Source: an uncultured Pirellulales bacterium (GTDB taxonomy: Bacteria > Planctomycetota > Planctomycetia > Pirellulales > CAYZVT01). Taken from it: DNA of 44,212 nucleotides. The notes beneath the pieces were generated by a model, which made no database searches, had not been told where the DNA came from, and worked only from the letters and a program-made list of their open reading frames with translations. Shown here piece by piece: positions 4,894 to 44,212 of this stretch. Position numbers and translations under genes: made by a program. The first letter of the stretch is position 1, and each line of letters starts with the position of its first letter. The stretch is taken from positions 1 to 44,212 of the forward strand of contig CAYZVT010000001.1 of NCBI GenBank assembly GCA_964481585.1, written 5' to 3'.

Positions 4894-4906
4894 GAGGGCC
4901 AATTCT

Positions 4907-20679: not shown

Positions 20680-21221
20680 GAGCGCTCCTCCGCAGCGAGC
20701 GTGCGTTCGATGCACGTAAATAGATTGCGGCGGATACGGGTCAGCGCCTTGTAGACCGTCTTGGCGGGGCGGTTCAGTTGTTCAGCCACATCTTTGATCG
20801 CGGCTCCGTGCTGGTAGCAACGCTTGATGAGATCCCGTTCTTTGGGCGACAGTCGTTCGACGCAGCTGGCCAAAGCGCGAAGCTGGTCTGGCTGAGCGTC
20901 GGCGGTCTGCACCGCCTCGGCCGCGACTGCTTCCAAAAAGGCTTCGCTGAATAGTTCTGGCACGCGCTTTTGGCGACGCCGGAAGGCGAGCACCTGATAG
21001 TAGGCGACTTTGCAGGCCCAGGCCGGAAAATTACTGTTCGGCTCGAACTCAGAGAACGACTGCCAGAGGGCGACGTAGGTTTCTTGCAGCACGTCCTCCA
21101 CATCGTTCCACTCAGGCAGCAGCGTCCGCACATAGGCATGAATCCGCGCCTGGTGGATCGAGACGAGCCGCAAGAAGTCGGTGGTTTCCAGCCCTTCGCT
21201 CCCGCTTTCCCGCGTATGCAT
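20676..21221 (-). CDS. ECF sigma factor
   Basis: 181 aa from ATG 21221. Region 2 VEDVLQETYVALWQSFSEFEPNSNFPAWACKVAYYQ. Region 4 IKDVAEQLNRPAKTVYKALTRIR. Confidence 0.85.
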   Translation of the reverse strand: MHTRESGSEGLETTDFLRLVSIHQARIHAYVRTLLPEWNDVEDVLQETYVALWQSFSEFEPNSNFPAWACKVAYYQVLAFRRRQKRVPELFSEAFLEAVAAEAVQTADAQPDQLRALASCVERLSPKERDLIKRCYQHGAAIKDVAEQLNRPAKTVYKALTRIRRNLFTCIERTLAAEERS

Positions 21222-21520
21222 CGAAACCTCTGCCACCGAACTTGCTTCCGAACATGCCGATCTTTCCCCTTGCTCTAGGCGCTTGCCAGCCCGAAGCCGG
21301 CATTTTTTTTGAAACTTTTTAAAAAGCGTGGGCCTGCCAGGGCAAATCGCTGAAATTGCACCGCCCTGCAAGCGGCAAGGAGGAAACAGCCCGAGCCGCT
21401 CAGCCACAGGGCAGGGGCGCGGCTGCTGGAGAGAATCGGCCGGCGGCGAAGAAGCGGCGAAGCTCTGGCGGTGCTGGGGAGCGCCGCGCCCCAGGCGCCT
21501 ATCCGCCCACAGGCACCCGG

Positions 21521-30953: not shown

Positions 30954-31483
30954 CGCGAGCGCTCCTGAGCGAGTGCCCGGTTGATGCAGTCGTAAAGCGA
31001 TTGGCGGATGCGTCGCAACGATTGATAGACGCCGTCGGCCGAACGCCCCCGGTGCGCGGCGACCTGCTTGATGCTGGTGTTGCGCTCGTAACACTGCTCC
31101 AGAAGCTGCCGGTCGGCAGGGCTCAATTTTTCCAAGCAGAAAGGCAGCGCCTCGCGCCGCGCCGCAAAGAGATCCACCTGAGCAGCCCGCTCCGCGCTTA
31201 GCGCGGCCAGCAGCGATTGGCTGAAGACGGTTTGCTGGCGGCGTTTACTTTGGACAAAGTTGTTCGCTTCGTAATAGGCAATCCGGCATGCCCAGGCGAA
31301 GAAATTGGTGTCGGGTTGGAACTCGTCGAACTTGCGCCACAAAATCAGGCTCGTCTGCTGCAACAAATCTTCGGCGTCGGCCGTGTTTTGCACCAGCGCA
31401 TGCAAGTAGCCCAGCAACTGGCGTTGATGCTGGGAAAACAGTTCCACAAAAGCGTCGGGCCGTTTCTCCGTTTTTCTCGCCAT
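30950..31483 (-). CDS. ECF sigma factor
   Basis: 177 aa from ATG 31483. Region 2 AEDLLQQTSLILWRKFDEFQPDTNFFAWACRIAYYE. Region 4 IKQVAAHRGRSADGVYQSLRRIR. Confidence 0.85.
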   Translation of the reverse strand: MARKTEKRPDAFVELFSQHQRQLLGYLHALVQNTADAEDLLQQTSLILWRKFDEFQPDTNFFAWACRIAYYEANNFVQSKRRQQTVFSQSLLAALSAERAAQVDLFAARREALPFCLEKLSPADRQLLEQCYERNTSIKQVAAHRGRSADGVYQSLRRIRQSLYDCINRALAQERSR

Positions 31484-31724
31484 ATGCCATCTCTGGATAG
31501 TCGCGCGAATCGAACCGGCTACCGCCGAGCCAGCTCCGCCCCACGCCGCGACGGTCCGCCCGACAGAACGCCCCGCCATATAACTAACGTGGCGATCGCG
31601 AAGAATCTGAGGCAATTTTTTGCAACAGGCTGGCCGTTCCCCAATCCGTTGCCGTCAGCGCTCTTTAGCCTCCTGTAGAAACCGCGCGGAAGCGCCGTGA
31701 AACCACGATCAGCAACAAAGAAAC

Positions 31725-31748
31725 GCCAGACGCGGGCAGGCGTCTGGC
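31725..31748. other. perfect 9-bp-stem hairpin in the 666-bp divergent intergenic region
   Basis: gccagacgc-gggcag-gcgtctggc, read directly. Function unknown. Confidence 0.5.
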
Positions 31749-32149
31749 ATTGGTGTAAAGCATTGGTGGCTAAGCAGTTTCGCCTGCGTCTTGTAGTGCC
31801 CCCTCATGGACGGGAACCACAAACCCTGTGACTAAGTGGAGCGGGCAATGCGGGGGTAAGACACAGCAACCCGCGCTTGGATCGCCGAGCGCGTCCGCCA
31901 GTGTCTGATTTTCCCGCCGGTCCAAGCGCCTGGCCAGCCTGCTGCGCAGCCGCGCCGGCGCGGCGTAACATGCGTACCACCATTCCGGTTACCTCAGTCT
32001 TGCCAGACCTACTGGAACAATTGAGGGGGTTGCGGTACACTAGGCGGACCCCACGGGTGGAGCGAGAACAGGCCTGGCATCCGCTACTGAATTTTCCCGA
32101 CAACGGCGCTTCTCGGCGCGCGCTGCGGGGCCTGCCAAGGAAATCTGCC

Positions 32150-33961
32150 ATGCCCGAACCCGAGGAACTGGCCTATCGGCGTTGGCTCGGCTGGAAGCAC
32201 TCAACCGCACCGAACCATTACGAACTGCTGGGCGTCCCTAGCGAGGTTGCCGACCCGGATCAAATCTCTGCGGCCGCGCAGCGGCGTCTGGCGCAACTGC
32301 GGCAAGCCCAGCCGACAGGCGACGCGGAGGCAGCGCAGCTCAAGCGGCTGCTGTACGAAGTGACGCGGGCGCGGCAGTGCCTAGTCGATCCGCAACTGCG
32401 TGCCCGCTATGACCGCAGCCTCGCCGCGCCGGCGCTGGAGCCGCTCGACTTGGCGCTCTGCCCGGACTTGCCGCTCGAACCGCTCCGCGCGCCCGTGGCG
32501 ATCGGTGGTCACTTGCCGCCCCGCCAAGTCCTGTCCCGTTCCCGCGCGCTGGGCAAGCTCTCCGCGGGCTGGTGGGCCGGTGCCGCCGGCTCGGGGTTGC
32601 TGCTGTTGACCGGCGGCTTGATTTACCTGACCCGCGACGCCGACGCGATCCCCGTCGCTCAAGCCGACGCGCCGAGCCGCGAAGAGGCGTCGGCCGACAA
32701 TGCGCCGCCTCCGCCGACGCCACCGCGTCCGTCCAATGCGCCTCAGCCGCAGCCGAATGAAGCGCCCTTGCCCACGCCGGAACCCGCGCTGCCGGCCCAG
32801 TCGCTCCCGAGCGGTCCGCCTCCCGCTCCGTTTGCCAGCCTGCCGGCCGAGACGGAGTTGCCCCGGCGCGTGCTCTCGCAGACATTGGGCGTCGAGGCTG
32901 CCGGTTCGCGGCGACTCGGCCCCGTAGCGCTGGCCGGACGCAAGTTGAGCGTCGCGCTTGACTGTTCGGCTTGCGATCTGCCCGGCAGTTATGCTTTTGT
33001 TGTCGAACCGCATCCCCAGAACGCCGAGCAATGGCTCGTGCGCCTTGCGCCGCGTCCTGCCGAGAACAATCCCGCGTCCGCAGAGGCGGCCGACTCGTCG
33101 CTCGCCGTCTTACCGGCATCGCTCGCGCCGGTGGCCTTGCTGACGGCGGCCGATGGGCAATTGGCGTTTCAGTGGAACGCGGAGAATACCGAGCCGCGGG
33201 CTGAACAGTTGCGCAACGCGGTGCTCCACCTGCGGGCCGGCGAGATGTCGCACGCGCTGCGGCTGCGCAGGGTGCGGCGCGTGCCGCCTTGGACGGTCGA
33301 CTTGGCCAGCGAGGCACACCGCATTGGCTTGGACCTGCCCCATCCGCCGCCGAGGGAGCAGTTGTTTTTGGAGATCACGGCGCTGGACGGTTTTGACCTG
33401 CAACTGGCGTACGTCGTGGCCGACCGCAAATTTGGCGTGGGCGAAGTGGCGGAGATTCCGATCCACGCCACCCCCGAGGCGAGCCTCAACCTGAGCTTGG
33501 TGCAACAGGACGAGGGTTGGGAGATCACCATCTTCAGCCATTACCAGATCGGTCGCCGCGCGACGGATTTACACGCCGAACAAGTGCGGACGACGCTGCT
33601 GGGTTTGAACAGGACGCTCCAGGAAAACGCCGCCGAGATGCGCGCCGCGCAAGCGGCGGTCGAAACGATCGGCCTCCGCTTGCGGTATCTACAGGGCCTG
33701 CCGGCTCCCACCGGGATAAGCCGCGAAATCCAGATGGCGGCACGGCTGCAAGAAGCGCGGAATCTGCAAGCGCAGCTCAAGAAGGCGCTAAGCACGATCC
33801 GCCGCTTTGAAAACTCGCTTCCCCGTACGCAGTTGGCGCTCCAGCAGATGACTTCCTTGGCGGCGGCTTGCACGGCACTGCATCAGCATGCGCGGGTCCA
33901 CTATCGCGTGGTGGCCGACACGCCCGCCGGGGAGCGGGAACTATCGATCGCCGGTCCCTAG
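32150..33961 (+). CDS. bitopic membrane protein: N-terminal J-like domain lacking HPD, TM, Pro-rich linker, beta-rich + coiled-coil C-terminal module
   Basis: ATG 32150 with AAGGA 9 nt upstream. In-frame TTG 31877 and ATG 31970 are possible but look non-protein-like. J-like sequence NHYELLGV...RRLAQLRQAQPTGD...LVDPQLRARYDRSL. TM segment at about 32567-32630. Confidence 0.65.
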   Translation: MPEPEELAYRRWLGWKHSTAPNHYELLGVPSEVADPDQISAAAQRRLAQLRQAQPTGDAEAAQLKRLLYEVTRARQCLVDPQLRARYDRSLAAPALEPLDLALCPDLPLEPLRAPVAIGGHLPPRQVLSRSRALGKLSAGWWAGAAGSGLLLLTGGLIYLTRDADAIPVAQADAPSREEASADNAPPPPTPPRPSNAPQPQPNEAPLPTPEPALPAQSLPSGPPPAPFASLPAETELPRRVLSQTLGVEAAGSRRLGPVALAGRKLSVALDCSACDLPGSYAFVVEPHPQNAEQWLVRLAPRPAENNPASAEAADSSLAVLPASLAPVALLTAADGQLAFQWNAENTEPRAEQLRNAVLHLRAGEMSHALRLRRVRRVPPWTVDLASEAHRIGLDLPHPPPREQLFLEITALDGFDLQLAYVVADRKFGVGEVAEIPIHATPEASLNLSLVQQDEGWEITIFSHYQIGRRATDLHAEQVRTTLLGLNRTLQENAAEMRAAQAAVETIGLRLRYLQGLPAPTGISREIQMAARLQEARNLQAQLKKALSTIRRFENSLPRTQLALQQMTSLAAACTALHQHARVHYRVVADTPAGERELSIAGP

Positions 33962-34022
33962 TTGATCGTCATGGCATTCGAGACGTAAGGCCACTTGTCC
34001 CTTGGAGCAAGAGCAAACAACG

Positions 34023-35375
34023 ATGAGCGCTTCGCGTGATTTGCGAATTCAGTTGCGGTCGCGGGTGACCTGCCCGCACTGCTGGAAAAGGTTTGCGCCG
34101 GAAGACGTGCTGTGGATCTCGACGCACCCGAGCCTGCTCGACGACCCGCTGTTGGGGAGCGACCACCAGCAGCGTTTTCTGCCGACGCGGTTTAATGTCG
34201 ATGGCAACGCAATCGACTCGCGCGGGTCCGTTTGTCAGGAGCTCGCCTGTCCGCATTGCCACCTGTCGGTGCCGCGGGCGTTATTGGAAGTCGCGCCGCT
34301 GTTTGTGTCGATCATGGGCACGCCGTCGTGCGGCAAGTCGTATTTTCTGGCCTCGATGACCTGGCAACTCCGCAAGCGGCTGCCGCAGTACTTCGCCATG
34401 ACGTTCGGCGACGCCGATCCGGTTTCGAACAAGATCGTGAACCACTACGAGGAAGAACAGTTCTTCAACCCCCGCCGCGATGAAGTCGTCAAGCTGGCGA
34501 AAACCGAAGAGCAAGGCGACCTGTACGACACGGTTCGCTATGGGGAGCAGGTGGTGACTTATCCGCGACCGTTTCTGTTCAGCGTTCATCCGGGGCGCGA
34601 CCATCCGCACCACGACAACGCCCGCAAGATCGCGCGAATCTTGTGCCTGTACGACAACGCCGGCGAATCGTTCGAGCCGGGCAAGGACACGGCGGCCAAT
34701 CCGGTGACGCGGCACTTGGCCCAATCGCAGGTGCTGATGTTCTGCTTCGATCCGACGCAAGATCCGCGCTTCCGCGACGCCTGCCGGGGCCATTCGCAAG
34801 ACCCGCAAGTGCTTGAACAGCCCGTTACCTCGCGGCAGGAAACCGTACTGCATGAAATCGCCGATCGCGTCCGCAAGCATACCAAGCTCAAGCAAGGAGA
34901 ACGCCACCAGCGGCCGCTGATCGTGATCGTCACCAAATACGACGCTTGGTGGCATCTGCTGGGCGAGCAGCACTTGGAATCCCCGTGGGTTTGGGGCCCG
35001 CAACAAAAATGGTGCGCTTTGCAAATGGCGCAGATCGACGACGTCTCGGCCCGGCTGCGGGCGGTGCTGTGGCAGCTCTGTCCCGAAATCGTCTCGGCCG
35101 CCGAGGGCTTTGCCGAACAGGTGGTCTACGTGCCGGTCAGCGCGACCGGCTGCGGCCCGCAGCGCGATCCGGCGACCGGCGCGCTGGGCGTGCGGCCGCG
35201 CGACATCAAGCCGCAATGGGTCGAAGTGCCGCTGCTGGTGGCGCTGGCCCGCTGGGGCGGCGGCATGATCGCCTACAAGCAACGCCCACGCTCGCAACCC
35301 CCTCATTCTCGTCCGGTCGCGGCCACCGCGCCGCCGTCGAGCAACGGCCATCCTCAGACGAAAGAGGCCCGATGA
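34023..35375 (+). CDS. Zn-ribbon + TRAFAC-class P-loop GTPase
   Basis: Two CPHC pairs (34071-34082 and 34248-34259). G1 GTPSCGKS (34317-34340). G3 DNAGE (34653-34667). G4 TKYD (34932-34943). G5-like VSATG. No TM segment. Confidence 0.8.
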   Translation: MSASRDLRIQLRSRVTCPHCWKRFAPEDVLWISTHPSLLDDPLLGSDHQQRFLPTRFNVDGNAIDSRGSVCQELACPHCHLSVPRALLEVAPLFVSIMGTPSCGKSYFLASMTWQLRKRLPQYFAMTFGDADPVSNKIVNHYEEEQFFNPRRDEVVKLAKTEEQGDLYDTVRYGEQVVTYPRPFLFSVHPGRDHPHHDNARKIARILCLYDNAGESFEPGKDTAANPVTRHLAQSQVLMFCFDPTQDPRFRDACRGHSQDPQVLEQPVTSRQETVLHEIADRVRKHTKLKQGERHQRPLIVIVTKYDAWWHLLGEQHLESPWVWGPQQKWCALQMAQIDDVSARLRAVLWQLCPEIVSAAEGFAEQVVYVPVSATGCGPQRDPATGALGVRPRDIKPQWVEVPLLVALARWGGGMIAYKQRPRSQPPHSRPVAATAPPSSNGHPQTKEAR

Positions 35376-37930
35376 GCCAGGAACTGATTTACACCTCCGC
35401 CCCGCGCGGCTTGAAAGTCGGCAGCCGGGGGTTTTGCACCGTCGCCAGTACACCCGGTATGGCCAAAAATCTGGCCGAACGGCTCGAAGCCCTGAGCGGC
35501 TATCGGCATGTCTTTCCGCCACAAGATCCGCAGGCCGCGCTCAACCCCGTGGCGTGGTCGTGCCTCGCGCTGCAACTGGGGCCACTGCGCTACTGGGTGC
35601 TTTCGCGCGTGGCCGACGCGGGGCTGGATTATTCGCAGCGCACCAATAAGCTCGCCCATCATTTGGTCCTGGCCCAAGGCGAACTGCCGGCCGCCGGCCC
35701 CGCCGCGACGCTTGCGCAGCCGGGCGTGATGGAGACCCGTTGGACGGGCGAGCCGCGCCTGCTCACCAGTGGTCGCCCGCTACCCAAGGGCGACGCGCCA
35801 CCGAGCGTCTGTCACGCTTGGCAGCAAACGGCCGGCGACGCCGGTTGGGCGGGCGTCCTGGCGCAAACGCTGATTGACGGCCCGCGCGAGGCGTGCTTAA
35901 TCTTCCGCCCGGGCCAAGACCTGCTGCCGCTGATCCGCGAGGCACAAGCCTTGCTGCCGGCTGCGCTGCGCTGGCAAGCGACGTTCAGTACCTACTACAC
36001 GAAACTGCCGGCGGGAGCCGAATGCGCGTGGCGGTGCGTCGTCGATGGCACGCCCGAAGCAACCGCCGCGCGGCGCGCGGCGCATGCCTTGGTGCTCGAC
36101 TTAACCCGTCCCCTCGGCGCCGCCCCACAAACCACGGCGACCACCGCCGCCCGGCAAGGCCAATTGCTCACCTTGCCCGCCCCGCGCAGCGCGACGCCCG
36201 ACGCCGCACCGGACGCCGCCACCCCCGAGTCCACCGCCGCCGGGCGGTCCAGCGGCGACTACGGCCTCGCGCCGCCCGCCCTGGTCCAACCGCCCGACCG
36301 AGGCTTCCCCCCGCCCCGCACCGGCGAACCCATCCGCTTCCACCGTCCCAAACGCCGCCGGCGCGGGATGTTGCTCGCGGCGTTAGTCGGACTCTTGGCG
36401 GGAATGGCAGGCGTGTGGGCCTGGCGTCAATATGGCACCGCCGCGCCCGTCGTAGCGACGGCCCCTAAAGCAGCGGCTGCATCGCCCGGCAAAGCGAAGC
36501 CCAAGAAAGTGGCGGAGAAGTCTGTAGAAACGGAGGCCGCTCGGCCCGTGCCGTCGGTGCCGGAGCAGAAAGATCGTGGCGCAGGTGGAGGCACTGCCAC
36601 ACCGCAAGGACGCGACATGGATGGCGACAATAATTCTTCGTCGAGGGACAGTGGTGACGCAGACCAACGCCAAAACTCAACGACCGAGACAGGCGGCGAA
36701 GGAGGATCGGAATCGACAGAGCCACGGAAAAAGAAGCATGCGGAAGCGCAAGAAGACAAGAAAGAGCCGAAGAAAGAGCCTCTCCCTAAACAAGAACCGG
36801 CAGCCAAGGATCCATTTGCCGACCTGCCGCTGGTGATTGTGATGAAAGAGACGGGAACTGGCAGCGGTTTGGGATCAGAACCAACCGACGATTCGATCAT
36901 CCTTCATGCCGATCCGAAATCTGTCGAGTTGGAGTTGATCCGGCTATTCGCAACTGCCCCGGGAGATGAACTTAAATTAAAAAATGAATCCGACGCAACA
37001 CAACGTACGTGGAACGTGATGTGGAATGCCACGTCGATTGGCAGCGTGAGCTTAACTTCCAACACGCCCAAAGAACGGCCTGCATCGGCGAAGCTCTCGT
37101 TCGAGTGGAAACTGCCCAAGGGCGAGGGCGAGGGCCTGAAGAAAAAAATTGCCGCATTCGGATTGCTCATTCGCGTGGGAAAAGAAAAGGTCGCTTGCCG
37201 GTGGATTACCGACAAGCCCTTGGCGACAAAAAATAGATTGACGCTTAGCCAGAGACACCAGGACGGCAGATTGATATTGCCAGGGTTACCTAAGGTGAAC
37301 TCACCGTTCGGATACGACCTTCAGATTCTTTCAGCTTCCTATCCCAATCCGAATCAATGGAACAAGAAGCTTTCTCGCGAGATGGTTTTGTTAGACTCGG
37401 GACCGATTGACAACACTGGCAATTACCATCGCCTCCTTTGCCGTTGCCGTCTGAGCCTTGACCACACCCAGTCAAGTATCGGATACGATCTTCGAGTCGT
37501 CGGCTTTACGCATGAACATACTCGAAGCCTGGAGTACGGCGAAAAGAGCATTGCAGACTGGCTTGAGCAGAACCGTGGGACTTCATCAGACAGGTTACAG
37601 CGCGTTACGAATGCTGAACAAAGGCGAGGCGATCTGAGCGGGGAAGTGGACGATATGACTCAACAACTTGAGAAAGCCCATGACAAAAATAAAAAGCAGA
37701 TAGAACAGCAGCTAGAAGACGCGAAAAAGAAGCTACGCAGCGCGGAGCATGAGCTAGCAAAGGTGCAATTTGACAAAGCCGTGGACGACTTTTCTCGGGC
37801 GCTTCAAAAGCAAGATGTCACGCTCTCCGTGCGCATCGTGCTTGTTGATCCTCAGAAACGCTTTCCTCCGGTTCCGGTTTTGGATTTTACTCGCGATACT
37901 CACAGCGAAACCCTTACGACGCGGAACTAA
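35372..37930 (+). CDS. GAP1-like (GTPase-associated protein 1-like) bitopic protein with charged low-complexity linker and low-GC C-terminal module
   Basis: Its ATG overlaps the GTPase stop (ATGA at 35372-35375). N-terminus MSQELIYTSAPRGLKVGSRGFCTVAS...DYSQRTNKLAHHLVL. TM segment at about 36368-36424. K/E/D/S-rich linker. The C-terminal 350 aa are encoded at 40-45% GC. Confidence 0.7.
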   Translation: MSQELIYTSAPRGLKVGSRGFCTVASTPGMAKNLAERLEALSGYRHVFPPQDPQAALNPVAWSCLALQLGPLRYWVLSRVADAGLDYSQRTNKLAHHLVLAQGELPAAGPAATLAQPGVMETRWTGEPRLLTSGRPLPKGDAPPSVCHAWQQTAGDAGWAGVLAQTLIDGPREACLIFRPGQDLLPLIREAQALLPAALRWQATFSTYYTKLPAGAECAWRCVVDGTPEATAARRAAHALVLDLTRPLGAAPQTTATTAARQGQLLTLPAPRSATPDAAPDAATPESTAAGRSSGDYGLAPPALVQPPDRGFPPPRTGEPIRFHRPKRRRRGMLLAALVGLLAGMAGVWAWRQYGTAAPVVATAPKAAAASPGKAKPKKVAEKSVETEAARPVPSVPEQKDRGAGGGTATPQGRDMDGDNNSSSRDSGDADQRQNSTTETGGEGGSESTEPRKKKHAEAQEDKKEPKKEPLPKQEPAAKDPFADLPLVIVMKETGTGSGLGSEPTDDSIILHADPKSVELELIRLFATAPGDELKLKNESDATQRTWNVMWNATSIGSVSLTSNTPKERPASAKLSFEWKLPKGEGEGLKKKIAAFGLLIRVGKEKVACRWITDKPLATKNRLTLSQRHQDGRLILPGLPKVNSPFGYDLQILSASYPNPNQWNKKLSREMVLLDSGPIDNTGNYHRLLCRCRLSLDHTQSSIGYDLRVVGFTHEHTRSLEYGEKSIADWLEQNRGTSSDRLQRVTNAEQRRGDLSGEVDDMTQQLEKAHDKNKKQIEQQLEDAKKKLRSAEHELAKVQFDKAVDDFSRALQKQDVTLSVRIVLVDPQKRFPPVPVLDFTRDTHSETLTTRN

Positions 37931-37932
37931 CC

Positions 37933-40851
37933 ATGCTGCGCCAGCACCAGTTTATTGATGAGATTCAGCAGGCCGTGTATGCGCCGATGTCGGCGGAGCC
38001 GGAGTTGTTGCGGGATGCGGCGGCGGAGTATAGCGAGGCGTGTAGCACGGCCAATGCGCGGCTGCGGCAGGTGGGTTACTTGTTGCGGCAGGGGCTGCGG
38101 AGCGAGGCGCTGCAGGAGGCCGAACGCGAGCCGAACTTGCTCGATCTGGTCGCGCTGCTCGATTTTCCCGAGGCACCGGTCTGGTGTGCGCTGTTGCAAC
38201 AGTGGGGCATGGCGACGCCGCCGGCGCTGGCGGTCGATGTCGCGGCCGATCTGAATCAAGCCTACGCCGATCAAGAGCCGCTCAAAGAGATGCTCAAAAA
38301 GCATCGGCTGTTGGCCCTGGCCCGTGCGCCGCTCCATGCCCGCATCCATACTTTGCGGCGCATCCGCCAGGCCGATCCGGACAACGCCGCCTGGTATGCC
38401 GATCTCCAAGCGTTGGAAGAAGCCCGGCTGAATCAACTCGCCCAGGAAGCGGAGCGGGCCTTTGCGCGGGCGGATGCCGAGCAACTGCGTGCCCTGGCGT
38501 CGGAACTGCAAGCGGGCGACTGGCTCGCGCCCCCCGCGCCGGAACTTGTGGCCCGCGTGCGGCAACTCGAACAACAGATCGCTGCGAGACAAGCGCGGCT
38601 GGCGCTGGAGCAGTTGGAGCCGGAATTGACGGCAGCCTACGCCGCCTTCGATGTGGAAGCAGGCGCTGCGCTCCGCACGCGCTGGGAAGCACTGGCCGCC
38701 CAGGCGCAGCTTGCGCCTCACGACCCGCTGGCCGAACGGGCGGAGCCGGCGCTGGAATGGTTGGCCGACCAGGATGAGCTGGCCGCTCGCCGCGCGGCGC
38801 ATCAGGCGGCGGTCTATCGGCTGGAGGAAGCGCTGGCCGACGATGCTACGCCTGGACAACTCGAAAAGCTCTACCATGCCGTGCCCGACCACGAGGAGGG
38901 CGTGCCGCTTCCGTTGCAAAATCGCCTCCGCGCGCGGGTTGCCGCCGCCGAGCTGAACCAGCGCCGCAAGCACATGCTGACCGTGGTCGGCATCGCGGGG
39001 GGATTGCTGCTCGTCGCCGGCGTGGTTTTTATGCTCCTGCGGATGCAACAGCACGGCCGGCAGGTCACCGCGAGCACGCAAAGCTTACGGCAACTGATCG
39101 ACCATGGCCGCTTGGACGAAGCCGACCAGTTTTTCGATAACCTCCGCACGAGCGCTCCCAAAGTCGCCGAAGCCGCCGAAGTCCAACAGCAGCTTGGCCG
39201 ACTGCGCGGCGCGCAATCCGACGAACAAGCACGCCGCGCGGCGTTCACCCAGGCGATCGAGCAAGCCGAAGCGGCAGGTCCAGAGCAGCCCGACGAAACG
39301 GCGCTGGAACTGGCCCGCGAAAAAGTCCGCACCGACAGCGAAAAGGCACGCCTCTCGCGATTTGAATCGGCCGTCGCCGCAGCCCGCCGCGCACAGCAGA
39401 AAGCGCGGGACGACATATTTTTGGCGAAACTCGCAGCGCTGCGCGACAAGCTCGCCCAGTTGGAAGAAAGCACCCGCGAGAATGAACAGTCGGAAGCGGA
39501 GCTTGCGCAGCTGGCCGCCGAGCTGCGCAGCCTGCGCGAGAGCAACGGGCTGGTCACGCGGTCGATCTTGGCCCAAGCCGATCCGTTGATCGTACGGACC
39601 GACGCGCTGCGCAAGCATGTGCGGACGCGGATCGCGCAGCAAAAGCAGTTGCGTGAAATCACTACTGCCGTGGGCGACGTGTCACGATTCAGCGAAGAGT
39701 TGGCGCGGTTTGCCACGCTGTATCCCGAAGCCGCCTCCGCCGCGGCGTTCCGCACGGTGGCTCAGGAAGCCGATACTTGGCAGGGCATGGTCGAATGGTC
39801 GCAACTGCTGGCCGCGCCCGAGCTGCGCCGACTCGCCGCGCTTTCGCCCAAGGCGGCCCAAGCGTTGTTGATGCGCGGCCAGGCGCTGCGGCAGCGTTAT
39901 GCCGGGATTCCGCTGGCGGAAGAGTTCGCCGACAAGGAACCGTACCTGCAGGACTTGGCGCAGCGGCAATTCGACTCCGACGATCCGCCCTCCGCTGCCG
40001 CGCCGCAAAACCAGACGAAGCAACTCCTGAACGATCCGCTCATCGCCAACATCTGGATGGTGCAAGAGGCCGACGGCACGCGCTACTATCTGACGCGCAA
40101 GCCGGACATGAGCAATGCCAGCGCGACGGGACGGGTGGCGATCGAGTACCTCGCCGGCTTCGATCTGAAAACGCAGCGCGCCGGCATTGAGACGCGCACC
40201 TTGACCTACAATGACGAAGCGCCGCAAACGCGGGCGGCCCGCCGGTGCCTGGAGCATCTCCGTGATCTGACGGCGAATAACTGGGAGGAGACGTATTTTC
40301 GGCTGTTGAAAGAAGTGCTCGACGACGAGCAAATCGACCCGATCCTCAAGCTGGTACTGGTCCAGCGCATCGCCTCGCATGGCGGGCTGGCGAGCACCAT
40401 CTTCCGCACCGCTTGGGAGCCGTGCGAACGGCATCTGAAAAGCGCCGAATTGCAACTTGGCGCGCCGTGGATGCTGCCCCGCGACGACGAGGCCGTGCAG
40501 GCCCGCAACGCCGCCGAGCATGTGCTCGCGACGCTTCCCCCCTGGAATGAAGCGGCGCGCGCGGCGGCGACGAAGCTGCGCGAGGTCCAGGCGCCGCCGC
40601 GGCATCAGTACCACTGGATCGGCTGGCTGGAGCATGATCCGCAGGCGGGCTGGCGGTGCCGCACGCCGAGCGGCGCGTTCTCCGACGGGAATTTGCTGGT
40701 GATCTATCGTCCGGCAGATGCCCAGCGGGCGGAACTCGCGCCCGTGGCCACGCGATCGGGCGGTAGCATCACCTGGCAGGCCGAAACCTCGACGGCATTT
40801 CAAGCCGGACGTCCCATTTTTTTACAAGTCACGGGCCGAGCCACGAAGTGA
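37933..40851 (+). CDS. 972-aa predominantly helical bitopic membrane protein
   Basis: ATG lies 2 nt after the previous stop. About 350-aa N-terminal helical region. One TM segment (MLTVVGIAGGLLLVAGVVFMLL, about 38974-39042). Long A/E/Q/R-rich coiled-coil stretch, then a globular C-terminal region. Confidence 0.7.
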   Translation: MLRQHQFIDEIQQAVYAPMSAEPELLRDAAAEYSEACSTANARLRQVGYLLRQGLRSEALQEAEREPNLLDLVALLDFPEAPVWCALLQQWGMATPPALAVDVAADLNQAYADQEPLKEMLKKHRLLALARAPLHARIHTLRRIRQADPDNAAWYADLQALEEARLNQLAQEAERAFARADAEQLRALASELQAGDWLAPPAPELVARVRQLEQQIAARQARLALEQLEPELTAAYAAFDVEAGAALRTRWEALAAQAQLAPHDPLAERAEPALEWLADQDELAARRAAHQAAVYRLEEALADDATPGQLEKLYHAVPDHEEGVPLPLQNRLRARVAAAELNQRRKHMLTVVGIAGGLLLVAGVVFMLLRMQQHGRQVTASTQSLRQLIDHGRLDEADQFFDNLRTSAPKVAEAAEVQQQLGRLRGAQSDEQARRAAFTQAIEQAEAAGPEQPDETALELAREKVRTDSEKARLSRFESAVAAARRAQQKARDDIFLAKLAALRDKLAQLEESTRENEQSEAELAQLAAELRSLRESNGLVTRSILAQADPLIVRTDALRKHVRTRIAQQKQLREITTAVGDVSRFSEELARFATLYPEAASAAAFRTVAQEADTWQGMVEWSQLLAAPELRRLAALSPKAAQALLMRGQALRQRYAGIPLAEEFADKEPYLQDLAQRQFDSDDPPSAAAPQNQTKQLLNDPLIANIWMVQEADGTRYYLTRKPDMSNASATGRVAIEYLAGFDLKTQRAGIETRTLTYNDEAPQTRAARRCLEHLRDLTANNWEETYFRLLKEVLDDEQIDPILKLVLVQRIASHGGLASTIFRTAWEPCERHLKSAELQLGAPWMLPRDDEAVQARNAAEHVLATLPPWNEAARAAATKLREVQAPPRHQYHWIGWLEHDPQAGWRCRTPSGAFSDGNLLVIYRPADAQRAELAPVATRSGGSITWQAETSTAFQAGRPIFLQVTGRATK

Positions 40852-40895
40852 GCACGAATCTCGCCTTCGCTTTTTGGAAACGTGAGGTGTCAATC

Positions 40896-41410
40896 ATGGA
40901 ACAAGCACTCTACATCCGCATTCGCGGCCGGGTTCAAGGTCCCTTCGAACCGGACAAGCTCAAGGCGCTCGCCAAGCGAGGGCAACTGAGCCGGATGCAT
41001 CAGGTTTCTCCCGACGGCGCGAACTGGCAGCGGGCGAGCGATTATCCCGACCTGTTCGTCACGACCGCGACCGTGCCGGCAGCCGCGATGGGCAACGGCG
41101 CAGTGGGTAACGGCGCGGCGAGCGCGCCCGCGTTTGAGGAGCAAACGACTTCGGCCGAACCGCTGGGGGCGCAAGGCTCGGCCCAATGGTACTACGCCAA
41201 GGGGGAGAGCCAATTCGGTCCCACCGACTTTGAGCACTTGCGGCAACTTGCCGCCAGCGGCCAACTCCGCCCTCAGGATGCCGTCTGGAGCGAAGGCATG
41301 AGCGGTTGGGCCACGGCCGACAGCATCGCCGGGCTAACCTTTGGCGCCGCGCCGCAAGTCGCCGGCTCTGAACACGGGGTGCATGGTTCTCAGACGAGCA
41401 TAGCCGGCCG
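40896..41410 (+). CDS. GYF-GYF domain protein, N-terminal part of a frameshifted gene
   Basis: ATG 40896 with a GTGAGGTG SD sequence. GYF_2-like motifs ALYIRIRGRVQGPFEPDKLKALAKRGQL and QWYYAKGESQFGPTDFEHLRQLAASGQLRPQDAVWSEGMSGWATADSI. After about 41410 the frame turns Arg/Gly-rich and junk-like, although it stays open to 42014. Confidence 0.55.
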
Positions 41411-41414
41411 GCCG
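41403..41414 (+). repeat. (GCCG)3 tetranucleotide tract at the GYF-gene frame junction
   Basis: Read directly: gccg gccg gccg at 41403-41414. Removing one unit fuses the two frames. Confidence 0.9.
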
Positions 41415-41454
41415 CACGTCGCGTCGCGAGAGTACGGAAGTCAGCGACAGCATC

Positions 41455-41856
41455 GTGCGGCCGCTGTTGGCTTCCAAAGGCTGGGTGACATTTCTCGGGG
41501 TCTTTGCGATTATCTTGGGCGGCATTGCGCTCTTGCCGGCCATGTTGCTCTTTTCCGCAGCGGCCCGCGAACCGGAGGTGCTGTTTCTAGGTCTCAGCCC
41601 TCTGCTGAACTGCGCGGTCTTAGTCACGACCGGAGTGCTGCTGCTGGGCTACAGCGGGGCAATCCGCGACCTGGCCTATACGCCCAGCACCGTGCGACTC
41701 GCCGCCGCGATGCGGAAACTCTCGACCTTCTGGACGTTCGCGGGGATTGTGGCGCTCGTGTTCCTGGGGCTCACGGTGGTGGTGGTTTTATTGATGGTCC
41801 TGGGACTGGTCGGCATGGCGGCTGCGCTGTCCGACGTGATGCTTCTGACTCTCTAA
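41455..41856 (+). CDS. polytopic membrane module (C-terminal part of the GYF gene, or a separate GTG-initiated ORF)
   Basis: The frame is open from 41404. It predicts 3-4 TM helices (WVTFLGVFAIILGGIALLPAMLLF, VLVTTGVLLLGY, FWTFAGIVALVFLGLTVVVVLLMVLGLVGM). Its stop lies 15 nt before the MotA-like start, matching the operon packing. Confidence 0.55.
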   Translation: MRPLLASKGWVTFLGVFAIILGGIALLPAMLLFSAAAREPEVLFLGLSPLLNCAVLVTTGVLLLGYSGAIRDLAYTPSTVRLAAAMRKLSTFWTFAGIVALVFLGLTVVVVLLMVLGLVGMAAALSDVMLLTL

Positions 41857-41871
41857 CTCGATCGGACCCTT

Positions 41872-42786
41872 ATGAATCTTTCGGCTACGACCGAGGCCTC
41901 GGCGGCCGCATCGGCGTCCAACCTAACTGGGCAAGAGCCGACCTTGTCGTGGGCCCGCCGCGACTTGGAGCAGCGGCTCGGCTTTCGCGGGGCGCGCTTC
42001 ACGCGCGTGAATAATCTGTTGTCGTTTCTGCTCGCGGGAGTGGCGACCGTCGGATTCTATCTGTTGCTGCTGCCGATCGCCGAGACGCCCCTGGCGGCGA
42101 TGTTTACCGAGCGCGGCCCGACTCCTTACTTCATCGCCTTCTTCTCCTGTTGGTCGCTGGCGATCCTGCTGCTTAAATGGGGGAAGCTGAAATTGCAGCG
42201 CCAAGCGCTCGCGCATCGCGTCGTGCCCGACGATCCGACCTTTGTGCTCTCGCCTAGCACGGCCGACGATGTGATGCACCGCATTTACGCCACGGTCGAT
42301 GATCCCCGGCATTTCTTGCTTTTCAATCGGATCGTGATCGCGCTGTCGAACCTTCGCAATCTGGGCCGCGTCTCCGATGTGGATGAGATTCTCCGCTCGC
42401 AAGCCGAACACGACGAGTCGTCGGTCGAAACCAGCTACGCGCTGCTCAAAGGCTTTATCTGGGCGATTCCGGTGCTGGGGTTCATCGGCACGGTGCTGGG
42501 CTTGTCGCAGGCCATCGGCGGCTTCGGCAGCGTGCTGGGCAATTCGCAAGACCTGAGCCAAATCGCCGCTTCGCTGAAGGGCGTGACGGCCGGGCTGGCA
42601 ACCGCTTTTGAAACGACGCTGGCCGCACTGGTTGCCGCGCTGGCGATTCAAATGCTGTTCACGTTCCTCAAAAAGTCCGAGGAAGAGTTTCTGGACGAGT
42701 GCGCCGAGTATTGCCATCGCCATGTGGTCAACCGCCTGCGGCTGATGCCGTTTGAATCCCAGGATGCGCAGCATGTCGCGTCGTAA
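41872..42786 (+). CDS. MotA/TolQ/ExbB proton-channel family protein
   Basis: 304 aa. TM helices plus the family signature region FIWAIPVLGFIGTVLGLSQAIGGF....LKGVTAGLATAFETTLAALVAALAIQMLF. Confidence 0.85.
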   Translation: MNLSATTEASAAASASNLTGQEPTLSWARRDLEQRLGFRGARFTRVNNLLSFLLAGVATVGFYLLLLPIAETPLAAMFTERGPTPYFIAFFSCWSLAILLLKWGKLKLQRQALAHRVVPDDPTFVLSPSTADDVMHRIYATVDDPRHFLLFNRIVIALSNLRNLGRVSDVDEILRSQAEHDESSVETSYALLKGFIWAIPVLGFIGTVLGLSQAIGGFGSVLGNSQDLSQIAASLKGVTAGLATAFETTLAALVAALAIQMLFTFLKKSEEEFLDECAEYCHRHVVNRLRLMPFESQDAQHVAS

Positions 42787-43597
42787 TCGGGATGTCACGC
42801 CATTTTCACTGTTCGCGTTTCAGGACATCATCACCGCGGTGACGGGCATCATCGTGCTGGTGACGCTGCTGTTGGCGCTGGACCTGTTCACCCGCAAGCC
42901 GAACACGCCCGACCTCGATACCCATGCGCTGGCCGAACAGGCTCGCCGGGCGATTGCCGCCGCGCAGGCGGAGCAGGTCGAGTTGGAGGCGCAACGGGCG
43001 CAGGATCAGACGGTCGTGTTGGCAACCGCCCGTCTTTCGCCGAGCGAGGTGGAACGGCGGCGGTACGATCTCACGCAGGAAAGTGCCCAGTTGCGGCGTG
43101 AATTGTCCGAGCTGGACGCGCAAGTGGCCCGTGCGGCGGCGGCCCGCGACAAACTGGAAGCGGAGCGTTACGAACGGCGCGACGACGCCGAGCAGCTCGC
43201 CGCGCTGCGGGCGCAGTTGGCGGCGCTCGAGGCGAAGCTGGCGGAGTTGGAGCAGTCGGAGCGGATGATTTACAACTTGCCCCCCGACGCCGAGAAGCAA
43301 GCCTGGCTGGTCGAGGTGGGCGAGGAGGAAGTGCAAGTGGCCCGCGCGGGGATCGACGAGCCGCCGCAAACGTACTCTGCCCGCGAGACTGTGCTCAGCG
43401 ACTCGCCGCTGACGGAATGGATTCGCACGCGCCAGCCAGCTCGCGAGTACTTCGTGCTTTTGGTGCGCCCGCAGGGGGTCCGCGTTTTCGACGACTTGCG
43501 CGAGCATTTGCGCCGGGAGGGATTTGAATACGGCTTCGATCTCATCGGCCGGGACGTGACGGTGTTTGACCCGGAACATGGAGCCGCCGCACCATGA
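42773..43597 (+). CDS. ExbD/TolR-like single-pass protein with inserted coiled-coil stalk
   Basis: ATG 42773 (AGGA SD sequence) overlaps the MotA-like gene by 14 nt. N-terminus FSLFAFQDIITAVTGIIVLVTLLLAL is ExbD-like. About 100-aa A/E/Q/R heptad region. C-terminus YFVLLVRPQGVRVFDDLREHLRREGFEYGFDL is ExbD-periplasmic-domain-like. Confidence 0.6.
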   Translation: MSRRNRDVTPFSLFAFQDIITAVTGIIVLVTLLLALDLFTRKPNTPDLDTHALAEQARRAIAAAQAEQVELEAQRAQDQTVVLATARLSPSEVERRRYDLTQESAQLRRELSELDAQVARAAAARDKLEAERYERRDDAEQLAALRAQLAALEAKLAELEQSERMIYNLPPDAEKQAWLVEVGEEEVQVARAGIDEPPQTYSARETVLSDSPLTEWIRTRQPAREYFVLLVRPQGVRVFDDLREHLRREGFEYGFDLIGRDVTVFDPEHGAAAP

Positions 43598-44212
43598 GAC
43601 GCCGCGCGACCGACGATCAAAGCAGCTTGGAACTGCTGCTCGACACGATCACAAATACGTTTGGCGGGGTGTTGTTCATTGCAATCCTGATCGCGATCTT
43701 GCTGCAACTCAGCGGCCGCATTGAGCGCGAAGCGCCGCAGCCGGTGCCGCAGGCCGAGTTGATCGCGCTGCGGCAGCAATTGGCCGACGCGCAAGCGGCG
43801 CTTGGGGCGCTGCGCGCGGCCGTGGAAGCCCAGGAGCAGGTAGCCGCCGATTTCAGCCCGCAGGCACTCAGCGACCAGGCGCGCGAGGTAGAGGCGCTGG
43901 AGCAGCAGCGCGACGCGCTGCGGACGAAGCGGCTGGCGCTGCTGGAACAACTGAGCGGGCTGCATGTGGAGTCGGGGGCGATTGCCGCCGAGTTGGAAAG
44001 ACTCGCTGCGGAGCAGGCGACCGTTGCCGAAGCGGTACGCCAGGCCGAGGCGGCACTACGGAGCGAGGTGGAGCAGCGCTCCGTCGCCGGACGATTGCCC
44101 AAAACCCGCCCCACCTACAAGCGCGAAGTGGCATGCCTCGTGCGGCACGGGCGGCTGTACTCGTACTTCCAAAACCCGCCCCAAAGGATGGTCGAGTCGC
44201 CCGTCGCGGAGC
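43594..44212 (+). CDS. second ExbD/TolR-like coiled-coil protein (paralogous architecture), 3' partial
   Basis: Not in the ORF track because it has no stop within the window. My translation from ATG 43594 (ATGA overlap with the previous stop) is open to the window end: MRRRATDDQSSLELLLDTITNTFGGVLFIAILIAILL, followed by coiled coil. Confidence 0.6.
   Translation, partial: MRRRATDDQSSLELLLDTITNTFGGVLFIAILIAILLQLSGRIEREAPQPVPQAELIALRQQLADAQAALGALRAAVEAQEQVAADFSPQALSDQAREVEALEQQRDALRTKRLALLEQLSGLHVESGAIAAELERLAAEQATVAEAVRQAEAALRSEVEQRSVAGRLPKTRPTYKREVACLVRHGRLYSYFQNPPQRMVESPVAE

Follow-up and report, generated by a model that had tools for sequence, protein, structure and literature searches.

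A predicted membrane-anchored GAP1 protein of the N2 subtype, encoded beside a zinc-ribbon GTPase in an uncultured Pirellulales bacterium

Encoded at 35372-37930 of the window, by which is meant here the whole analysed stretch of 44,212 nucleotides from an uncultured Pirellulales bacterium, is what its sequence identifies as a membrane-anchored GAP1 of the N2 subtype, i.e., a member of a family that already has been described. This protein probably is bitopic, residing in the inner membrane, and probably is a partner dedicated to the zinc-ribbon DO-GTPase2 that is encoded by the adjoining upstream gene. The two genes, and the parts of GAP1, are these:

34002..35375, + strand: partner GTPase, with an N-terminal zinc ribbon (CPHC...CPHC) followed by a P-loop GTPase
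35362..35375, + strand: gene junction: AAGAGG, Shine-Dalgarno-like, at 35362-35367, then ATGA, the overlap of start and stop, at 35372-35375
35372-37930, + strand: GAP1 ORF, 852 aa, ATG at 35372, N-terminus MSQELIYTSAPRGL
35372..35761, + strand: GAP1-N2 domain, aa 1-130 (Pfam PF20013; AlphaFold2 model)
35810..36109, + strand: GAP1-M domain, aa 147-246 (Pfam PF20014), alpha/beta, packing on N2
36110..36367, + strand: Pro/Ala-rich cytoplasmic linker by composition, aa 247-332, ending in KRRRR
36368..36427, + strand: single transmembrane helix, aa 333-352 (hydropathy scan)
36428..36811, + strand: polar spacer of low complexity, aa 353-480, with abundant K, E, S, T, G, D, and P
36812..37930, + strand: fast-evolving ectodomain, aa 481-852 plus stop codon, whose body is beta-rich, with a long helical hairpin and a pair of terminal strands

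The first-pass annotation had recognized a GAP1-like N-terminal domain at 35372-36367, which corresponds to residues 1-332 of the GAP1 ORF, up to its sole hydrophobic segment, and the peptides quoted there are found in the plus-strand ORF that begins with the ATG at 35372. That identification was right, the region consisting of an N2-type module and then GAP1-M. With Pfam, that is, GAP1-N2 (PF20013) is matched over aa 1-130 with E 1.2e-28 and 100.3 bits versus a cut-off of 24, and GAP1-M (PF20014) is matched over its whole profile, at aa 147-246, with E 1e-14 and 55 bits, also versus a cut-off of 24, both being far beyond chance. As these scores are far over the curated cut-offs, and as more than 1100 homologues carry the GAP1-N2 and GAP1-M pair, the notion that the GAP1 likeness is a chance resemblance of motifs, with the ORF being something else, is refuted, its remaining probability being negligible. 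The same N-terminal start is seen in all 119 of the closest database relatives of GAP1 (56-69% identity), and therefore 35372 is the real GAP1 start; the TTG further upstream, at 34946, is ruled out as a start by this common N-terminus.

No GAP1-C match was obtained in aa 251-852 even at E<=10, with a Pfam copy that may hold no GAP1-C model, and the 119 listed homologues possess N2 and M domains only. The position of GAP1-C is taken, in the GAP1 clade of this locus, by a proline-rich linker plus transmembrane (TM) segment. A TM segment followed by a large extracytoplasmic region had been claimed, and both the segment and a region of approximately 500 residues after it indeed are present, with the location of the latter outside of the cytoplasm being what the positive-inside rule predicts. 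The claim that such an architecture is atypical, however, fails. According to Kaur, Burroughs, Iyer & Aravind (2020, eLife; PMC7159879), C-terminal fusion to TM segments is frequent among GAP1-N2 proteins. A single TM at residue ~330-370 plus a tail of 450-500 aa is the normal arrangement, seen in about 115 of the 120 best GAP1 homologues.

The upstream partner, a zinc-ribbon P-loop GTPase, probably belongs to the DO-GTPase2 family. The Pfam DO-GTPase2 profile matches it with 25.6 bits (E 1.1e-5), just below the cut-off of 27, and is matched at E<=1e-3 by 40 of 45 GTPase orthologues, at best with 1e-8. The motifs present are GTPSCGKS, DNAGE, and TKYD, with C24/C27/C83/C86, G106-K112-S113, D218-x-x-G221-E222, and K312-x-D314 invariant among orthologues. 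TRAFAC-type features include GxxxxGKS, a Walker B glutamate (in DNAGE), and the CPHC...CPxC zinc-ribbon cysteines. That GAP1 adjoins this gene can be read directly from the DNA: in the context cgATGAgcc the ATG of GAP1 and the TGA that ends the GTPase ORF have bases in common, resulting in a 4-nt overlap. Among the junctions of 67 related loci, 24 possess a 4-nt overlap and 3 a 1-nt overlap, with approximately 40 falling within 20 nt. GAP1 proteins of the N2 subtype are encoded directly downstream of a DO-GTPase or fused to it, and the GAP1 gene here lies directly downstream; of 77 related loci, 66 have the GTPase as upstream neighbour. The overlap suggests translational coupling of GTPase and GAP1, as the first-pass annotation held, and such coupling would hold the ratio of the two proteins constant.

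The linker that precedes the membrane is a candidate ligand of GYF domains encoded downstream. When the last 75 residues ahead of the TM are compared over 116 homologues, PP occurs in 111 of them and PPP in 77. Following the TM, the polar spacer (GC3 of 0.56) is not alignable among homologues. The ectodomain, in turn, is a sequence orphan, i.e., phmmer against 1.84e9 representative proteins returned solely itself. In the closest relative (L082) its identity is about 24%, versus 67-73% for GTPase, GAP1 N-terminus, and neighbouring protein. Its GC content is about 0.51 versus 0.69 in the N-terminal part, its GC3 is low, and in 55 of 56 loci its DNA has a higher AT content than the remainder of the GAP1 gene. 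No profile match to fn3 or cadherin was seen in the variable regions, nor was a diversity-generating repeat pair found. The AlphaFold2 model of the ectodomain (pLDDT 77, pTM 0.67, with pLDDT >90 over large stretches) was matched by no fold in either PDB or BFVD, and no FNIII or Ig structure was found in it.

A second copy of this module is seen on the protein encoded upstream of the GTPase:

32150..33961, + strand: J-like bitopic protein, its J-like domain being degenerate, followed by TM and ectodomain; ORF open from 31877

An HMM of the GAP1 ectodomain matches this protein end-to-end (E 5e-26, 78 bits), with the motifs LxFxW, LRNxxL, and hYRhh among the matched positions, identifying its ectodomain as a paralogue of that of GAP1. 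Over approximately 100 homologues the length of the GAP1 ectodomain, its overall secondary-structure plan, and its short motifs (LxFxW, LRNCxL, and terminal hYhxV) have been kept, which, together with this duplication onto a second protein, implies a retained fold and function. The J-like protein matches Pfam DnaJ weakly (17.9 bits), and a homologue is found upstream in L082 as well. In systems of the GAP1-N2 type, one protein carries FNIII repeats that evolve rapidly, often in fusion with DnaJ (Kaur et al. 2020, PMC7159879); the J-like protein here is bitopic, with a fast-evolving, beta-rich ectodomain, and has no fn3 profile match.

In its AlphaFold2 model, which covers aa 1-262 of GAP1 (pLDDT 95.8, pTM 0.93), GAP1-N2 has a b-b-a-b-b-b-a topology that is longin/PAS-like. 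The best PDB fold match, using Foldseek, is TagF of A. baylyi (E 2.5e-4, prob 0.99, 247 columns), and next is the GEF domain of DENND1A bound to Rab35 (E 8.7e-3, prob 0.93, TM 0.44 on query, 282 columns). Weaker matches are to P. aeruginosa TagF, FLCN-FNIP2, C9orf72-SMCR8, and SEA-complex longin domains. These TM-scores are low, 0.30-0.44, and a profile search of PDB sequences with GAP1 yielded nothing relevant, that is, the fold likeness comes without sequence-level support. As modelled, the N2+M module resembles TagF and longin-DENN GTPase regulators at the level of fold only, and may form a TagF/DENN-type 'platform' with two lobes, one longin and one alpha/beta.

Downstream of GAP1 the window continues with five further genes:

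37933..40851, + strand: conserved 972-aa protein, bitopic (TM at aa 346-372), its family unnamed
40848..41856, + strand: protein with two GYF domains and a TM-rich C-terminus (Pfam GYF_2), frameshift-split in the window
41872..42786, + strand: MotA/ExbB/TolQ-family channel protein (Pfam MotA_ExbB, E 1.9e-12)
42752..43597, + strand: bitopic coiled-coil protein 1, with an invariant FQDI in its TM, the aspartate being ExbD/TolR/MotB-like
43594..44212, + strand: bitopic coiled-coil protein 2, with an invariant LLLDT in its TM; cut by the window end

Neither the 972-aa protein nor 38 of its relatives have a Pfam match. The two GYF_2 copies (E 1.1e-26) span 40848-41390. As indicated by a switch in both frame and GC3, this gene is split, with frame 0 extending to about 41400 and the TM-rich part found in frame 1, at 41455-41856, while in relatives both parts make up a single ORF of 300-318 aa; the frameshift may be an assembly error or, instead, may mean that the system is impaired at this locus. 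Planctomycete GAP1-N2 systems are coupled to just such a GYF-pair protein with a TM-rich region (Kaur et al. 2020, PMC7159879), and this planctomycete-variant gene is found at the locus, with GYF present in 47 of 51 related loci. Stator-type parts are present as well, consisting of the MotA_ExbB channel domain, in a protein that also weakly matches TolQ and ZorA, and partners with conserved TM aspartates. FQDI is invariant within the TM in an alignment of 22 homologues, and the ATG of the second coiled-coil protein overlaps the stop of the preceding gene (ATGA). The FQDI and LLLDT proteins do not match ExbD or MotB profiles.

Dozens of genomes of Planctomycetota show one colinear order, with GTPase, then GAP1, then the ~970-aa protein, and then the GYF-TM protein. 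At least 333 relatives were confirmed among species-representative genomes, and the 80 that were kept all are Planctomycetota save one record titled only 'uncultured bacterium'. The order is kept over loci titled Phycisphaerales, Tepidisphaerales, and Candidatus Kuenenia, among others. In loci with enough sequence the 972-aa protein follows GAP1 in 50 of 51. About half of loci, this one included, go on to the MotA/ExbB-like channel and two TM-aspartate proteins, with the channel gene in 24 and the FQDI protein in 19 of 51 related loci. Median identity in related loci is 52% for the GTPase and 63% for MotA.

The system might work as follows. The N2+M module would bind the GTPase in the cytoplasm, there either setting or reading its nucleotide state, and the TM helix would link that module to the fast-evolving periplasmic domain. 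An envelope event could thereby switch the GTPase or, from the opposite perspective, the state of the GTPase could reorganize a periplasmic assembly. The Pro-rich juxtamembrane linker of GAP1 would be the docking site for the GYF pair of the membrane protein encoded further downstream, as the GYF domain of GltJ binds a proline-rich sequence (PMC11135422), and the MotA/ExbB-like unit would supply ion-driven work. We infer these activities, i.e., GTPase binding, GEF or GAP activity, GYF docking, and transmembrane signalling.

To what end such a device is employed can be viewed in different ways. The published proposal is that of a GTPase-gated conflict system, with GAP1 and J-like ectodomains sensing an invader at the envelope, the GTPase acting as a threshold 'switch', and the GYF-TM protein and/or MotA-like channel serving as membrane-targeting effectors. 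This is a real possibility, if one short of probable. GAP1-N2 systems are classed in this manner, as possessing constant as well as highly variable parts (Kaur et al. 2020, PMC7159879), and the orphan status, divergence, AT-richness, and within-locus paralogues of the ectodomain all are consistent with it, as too is the second GAP1-N2 gene that adjoins the cassette in one related locus (L001). The window cassette nevertheless has no toxin or enzymatic effector domain, its core genes are without a PADLOC match, mobile-element genes were not seen among the window ORFs scanned, the repeat pair sought as a sign of diversity generation was not found, and a gene order kept across planctomycete groups looks more vertical than that of typical defence islands. 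Conservation of core proteins, and the near confinement of the relatives kept to Planctomycetota, are in keeping with another view, that of a housekeeping trans-envelope machine, its parts list like that of Myxococcus Agl-Glt or Tol/Ton and its GAP1 a membrane-anchored GTPase regulator. By analogy this could be so, though we would stop short of calling it likely. In its favour are the MotA_ExbB domain together with two partner families with invariant FQDI and LLLDT, and a weak match (26 bits) of the GYF region to the model of GltJ, a protein which couples MglA-GTP, GYF domain, and motor complex (PMC11135422). That match, however, is one of generic GYF similarity, with the cut-off being 450; the MotA module is found in merely 24 of the 51 loci; hypervariable ectodomains are odd for housekeeping periplasmic parts; and the analogy is one of parts lists, not of whole-system homology.

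Less is asked of the ectodomain if it is a weakly constrained spacer, with it and the TM doing no more than holding N2+M, and thereby the GTPase, at the inner membrane, in the manner of TagF recruitment by TagZ. TagF is the best structural match, bitopic TagZ brings it to the membrane, and the TagF phenotype can be complemented without the variable periplasmic domain of TagZ (bioRxiv 10.64898/2025.12.08.692957); fast evolution and low GC3 of the ectodomain fit as well. Simple tethering is rather unlikely, however, given an ectodomain that is confidently modelled over large stretches, has kept its length, fold plan, and motifs, and has been duplicated onto a second protein. Also improbable, on our assessment, is a bolder view in which N2+M is a bacterial, membrane-anchored regulator of the longin-DENN/TagF type and the cassette, consisting of GAP1, the J-like paralogue, the 972-aa protein, the GYF-TM adaptor, the MotA/ExbB-like channel, and two TolR-like partners, is a non-immune, GTPase-gated trans-envelope machine powered by ion-motive force. 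The DENN-type control of GTPases at membranes would then have a counterpart in prokaryotes.

With the GAP1 N2 systems of Kaur et al. (2020) the locus shares N2 and M domains, a position directly 3' of a zinc-ribbon DO-GTPase, a C-terminal TM fusion, a planctomycete host, and linkage to both a GYF-pair/TM-rich protein and a variable protein with a J-like domain. It differs in lacking GAP1-C, fn3, and cadherin matches, and the 972-aa protein, MotA/ExbB, and two TM-aspartate proteins are absent from the main text of that study (PMC7159879). TagF (T6SS accessory/checkpoint; PDB 9T0N, 6IZ8) is like the N2+M model in both of its domains, N-terminal alpha+beta and then C-terminal alpha/beta, and acts at the membrane via a bitopic partner with a variable periplasmic domain, an arrangement to which a single GAP1 polypeptide is comparable. 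Sequence similarity to GAP1, however, is not detectable, and TM-scores are ~0.3-0.35. No action on a GTPase is known for TagF, and the window is without T6SS genes. Longin-DENN modules (the Rab35 GEFs DENND1A/B; the GAP complexes FLCN-FNIP and C9orf72-SMCR8) have, as does the GAP1 model, a longin-like b-b-a-b-b-b-a lobe and then an alpha/beta lobe, with GAP1 too being in partnership with a GTPase, one that is obligatory at the level of the genome. The resemblance is nonetheless of fold only, whether from homology or convergence, no d-DENN lobe was identified in GAP1, and the partners are Rab/Arf/Rag rather than a DO-GTPase of the TRAFAC class. Agl-Glt (MglA, GltJ, AglRQS) has in common a GTPase switch, a zinc ribbon, a GYF membrane protein, a MotA/TolQ/ExbB-type channel, and two TolR/ExbD-like partners. 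These are generic domains alone, however: the GTPase family differs, the zinc ribbon is on the GYF protein rather than on the GTPase, and Glt outer-membrane components were not seen at the window locus.

GAP1/DO-GTPase systems, as a computationally defined family, are known from one comparative-genomics study alone, and no experimental work on any GAP1 family member was found in the literature searched. Simply as a family member the window locus adds little. What is new is a recurrent link of the GAP1 cassette to a MotA/ExbB-type ion-driven unit, a fast-evolving periplasmic module that is common to two proteins of the system, and a confident model that would put the GAP1 cytoplasmic module in the TagF/longin-DENN fold class, which suggests GTPase-regulator activity. 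If that fold relationship is true, then it would provide a rationale for the constant co-encoding of GAP1 and GTPase, and would extend DENN-like GTPase control to bacteria.

GAP1 in this window adds a member to a family that is already known and was defined computationally, and the literature searched includes no experimental study of a GAP1 or DO-GTPase protein. Pfam GAP1-N2 (PF20013) matches residues 1-130 (E 1.2e-28, 100.3 bits versus a curated cut-off of 24) and Pfam GAP1-M (PF20014) matches residues 147-246 (E 1e-14). The first-pass annotation, made from sequence alone, was thus correct in identifying a GAP1 N-domain, and the motif to which it pointed is, given these two matches, a genuine family signature. 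A permissive Pfam scan (E<=10) of the C-terminal 600 residues, on the other end of the protein, found none of GAP1-C, fn3, or cadherin. PADLOC and NCBIfam models match neither GAP1 nor the GTPase encoded upstream of it nor the 972-aa protein encoded downstream, and comparison of the GAP1 family profile with PDB sequences gave low-complexity or chance matches only. The genes of concern here are as follows.

31877 or 32150 to 33961 (within an ORF listed as 31832-33958), + strand: J-like bitopic protein, upstream of the GTPase gene.
35372 (ATG) to 37928-37930 (stop), + strand: GAP1, 852 residues as read from the sequence.
37933-40851, + strand: 972-aa bitopic protein, whose family is conserved in length (about 960-1000 aa) at 25-50% identity.
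40848-41856, + strand: GYF gene, encoding a GYF pair and then a TM-rich C-terminal part.
41872-42786, + strand: MotA_ExbB protein (Pfam E 1.9e-12).
42752-43597, + strand: bitopic coiled-coil protein with FQDI in its TM helix, invariant in 22 homologues.
43594 to the window end, + strand: second bitopic coiled-coil protein, with LLLDT in its TM helix, invariant in 19 homologues.

The GAP1 product begins MSQELIYTSAPRGLKVGSRGFCTVASTPGMAKNLAERLEALSGYRHVF, and its translation also contains LSRVADAGLDYSQRTNKLAHHLVL. A mechanical ORF list stretches this frame upstream to a TTG at 34946. That start is rejected, with 35372 taken instead, because the 119 closest relatives in the database all have their N-terminus at MSQELIYTS. 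Coupling to the GTPase, as had been claimed, is real at the level of sequence: at the junction (gaaagaggcccgATGAgcc) the GAP1 ATG has three bases in common with the TGA end of upstream ORF 34002-35375, and 4 bases 5' of that ATG is an AAGAGG element. Across 67 loci this junction is a 4-nt overlap in 24, and the two genes lie within 20 nt of each other in approximately 40. A promoter and terminator scan found nothing that would divide the cassette.

The only hydrophobic segment of GAP1 is residues 333-352, with KRRRR just before it, so that 35372-36367 is exactly the pre-membrane part. The combination of a TM segment with a large region following it had been called atypical, a description which does not hold. 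That is, among the best 120 homologues, most of them 800-900 aa in length, about 115 possess one strongly hydrophobic segment at roughly 330-370 and continue for a further 450-500 residues. Planctomycete GAP1-N2 proteins typically have this architecture, which has been described previously, and as the layout is the clade norm, the interest attached to it does not hold either.

The cytoplasmic module, i.e., N2 plus M, was modeled with AlphaFold2 (residues 1-262, 119 sequences; mean pLDDT 95.8, pTM 0.93). N2 is predicted to have the order b-b-a-b-b-b-a, with M an alpha/beta domain. Arginines R45, R79, R90, and R200 of this module are nearly invariant. The top Foldseek match in the PDB is A. baylyi TagF (9T0N; E 2.5e-4, probability 0.99, 247 columns), followed by the GEF domain of DENND1A with Rab35 (6EKK_B; E 8.7e-3, probability 0.93, 282 columns, TM 0.44 on the query). 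Ranked lower still are P. aeruginosa TagF and, as weak matches, FLCN-FNIP2, C9orf72-SMCR8, SEA-complex longin domains, and many LOV/PAS domains. TagF consists of an N-terminal alpha+beta domain plus a C-terminal alpha/beta domain, and is recruited to the membrane by bitopic TagZ, the periplasmic domain of which is variable (bioRxiv 10.64898/2025.12.08.692957). Kaur et al. (2020; PMC7159879) mention none of longin, DENN, roadblock, or TagF. As TM-scores are low, and as no PDB sequence-profile match exists, the predicted TagF/DENN likeness is kept as a fold-level lead. Such a fold does fit with the obligatory pairing of GAP1 and GTPase, and the model suggests that GAP1 may be a GTPase-binding regulator or platform.

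The presumptive partner, ORF 34002-35375, displays a CPHC...CPHC zinc ribbon, the P-loop GTPSCGKS, a glutamate-bearing Walker B (DNAGE), and the specificity motif TKYD, with P-loop, DNAGE, and TKYD invariant in an alignment of 45 orthologues. These are the same features as those of the DO-GTPase which Kaur et al. describe as the partner of GAP1-N2 (PMC7159879). The window GTPase scores 25.6 bits versus DO-GTPase2, just under the cut-off of 27; of the 45 orthologues, 40 reach E<=1e-3 with that model.

Beyond the membrane segment the picture is one of divergence. Versus the closest relative (locus L082), identity is 72.6% for the GTPase, 68.4% for the GAP1 N-terminus, and 67.5% for the start of the next gene, but approximately 24% for the ectodomain. 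The TM segment leads into a polar spacer of low complexity (residues 353-480). The AlphaFold2 model of residues 481-852 (pLDDT 77, pTM 0.67) predicts a body rich in beta structure, along with a long helical hairpin and two terminal strands, and its comparison with the PDB and BFVD returned nothing significant (best E 0.015, TM <0.2, with the helical hairpin behind the matches). With phmmer, residues 470-852 found only themselves among 1.84 billion representative proteins, and at E 1e-3 the ectodomain finds none of 119 homologues, though N-termini are 56-69% identical. Approximately 100 aligned ectodomains nevertheless retain LxFxW, LRNCxL, LRxP, and a terminal hYhxV strand.

An HMM built from that alignment matches the C-terminal half of the J-like protein end-to-end (78 bits), and the cassette thus has two membrane proteins with paralogous ectodomains but different cytoplasmic heads. 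The J-like domain itself is degenerate: inspection by eye shows no HPD motif, and Pfam DnaJ matches it only weakly. A homologue lies upstream of the GTPase in L082, with similar second copies in four other related loci (L002, L004, L007, L036). This protein probably is the ‘rapidly evolving’ DnaJ-fused component of Kaur et al., although no FNIII fold could be confirmed for it.

Base composition follows the same division. Spacer and ectodomain DNA (36428-37927) has a GC of 0.51 versus 0.69 for N-terminal coding DNA, and a GC3 of about 0.55 versus 0.78; 55 of 56 related loci likewise have the lower GC in this part of the gene (median GC3 0.54 versus 0.71). A diversity-generating retroelement as the source of ectodomain variability was considered and rejected, with no template/variable repeat pair found in 31000-44212. 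Also rejected is a horizontally acquired island: the GC drop does not extend beyond the ectodomain-coding stretch and is seen again in relatives, neighbors are ordinary planctomycete genes (ECF sigma/FecR-LamG pairs, DUF1559, PSD/PSCyt), and no mobile-element genes were found among the window ORFs scanned.

Those surroundings include FecR-domain anti-sigma-like genes at 3307-5106, 19015-21407, and 29304-31615, two of the three also with Laminin_G_3 and two of the three adjoined by an ECF sigma factor gene. Several DUF1559/N-methyl and PSD/PSCyt-domain proteins, typical planctomycete content, are encoded as well. The intergenic DNA that separates the J-like gene from a divergent ECF sigma gene contains a strong terminator-like hairpin (31722-31751, - strand; 12-bp stem, 7 GC pairs, T-rich tail).

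Scanning species-representative genomes by pattern yielded at least 333 confirmed relatives. Among the best 80 of these, 79 record titles name Planctomycetota and one reads only ‘uncultured bacterium’; groups named in titles include Pirellulales, Thermoguttaceae, Planctomycetaceae, Isosphaeraceae, Gemmataceae, Phycisphaerales, Tepidisphaerales, and Candidatus Kuenenia. Of 77 related loci whose upstream sequence suffices, 66 have the GTPase directly upstream of GAP1. Where at least 10.5 kb of downstream sequence is available (51 loci), the bitopic protein of approximately 970 aa follows GAP1 in 50, with GYF (47), MotA/ExbB-family (24), and bitopic coiled-coil (19) proteins also downstream. All of these are encoded in the window. 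Related locus L001 (GCA_021651095.1, 3322-8339) has, immediately upstream of the cassette and divergent from it, genes for another GAP1-N2/GAP1-M protein (800 aa) and for a WD40 beta-propeller; adjacent GAP1 paralogues therefore occur in some genomes.

Among the downstream products, the 972-aa protein and 38 relatives have no Pfam match, and a profile search of PDB sequences with this family likewise gave low-complexity or chance matches only. The GYF gene is apparently frameshifted, with the GYF pair in frame 0 to ~41400 and the TM-rich part in frame 1 (ORF 41455-41856), a change with which a GC3 frame switch at about 41390-41450 agrees. The shift zone holds a GCCGGCCGGCC run, and three relatives (L001, L007, L008) encode both parts in a single ORF of 300-318 aa. 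The frameshift could be genuine or could stem from an error in assembly. PADLOC and NCBIfam give the GYF region a weak generic GltJ match and the channel protein weak generic similarity to MotA/TolQ/ZorA, with coiled-coil noise elsewhere. An ATGA overlap (43594-43597) joins the two bitopic coiled-coil genes. In ExbD, TolR, and MotB a TM aspartate is essential, and it is this residue that the FQDI and LLLDT motifs recall. MotA, ExbB, ExbD, TolR, and proton-driven components go unmentioned in the main text of Kaur et al. (PMC7159879).

Nearly every homologue has a Pro-rich linker between GAP1-M and the TM segment (36110-36367 in the window), in which GPPP/APPP runs recur (PP in 111 of 116, PPP in 77 of 116). 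The ligand of the GltJ GYF domain is a proline-rich sequence (PMC11135422), and the linker is a plausible ligand for the GYF pair encoded downstream, with GLAPPALVQPPDRGFPPPRTGEP as a candidate peptide.

As to what the cassette does, the published conflict-system role and that of a housekeeping envelope machine are given equal weight. The hypervariable sensor-like parts support the conflict system. The housekeeping machine is supported by the broad, colinear conservation inside one phylum, the absence of any toxin-like effector, and the stator-like module.

Domain order, gene overlap, the conserved cassette, and the contrast in conservation between the two halves of GAP1 are observed directly. 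A mechanism may be envisaged beside them in which the N2+M module would bind the GTPase in the cytoplasm, there controlling or reading its nucleotide state, while the TM helix would connect that module to the periplasmic domain. The downstream GYF pair would dock on the Pro-rich juxtamembrane linker and, where present, the MotA/ExbB-like unit would supply ion-driven work. For this family it is the predicted TagF/DENN-like fold, the shared, orphan, low-GC3 ectodomain, and the MotA/ExbB-type link that may be worth following up.
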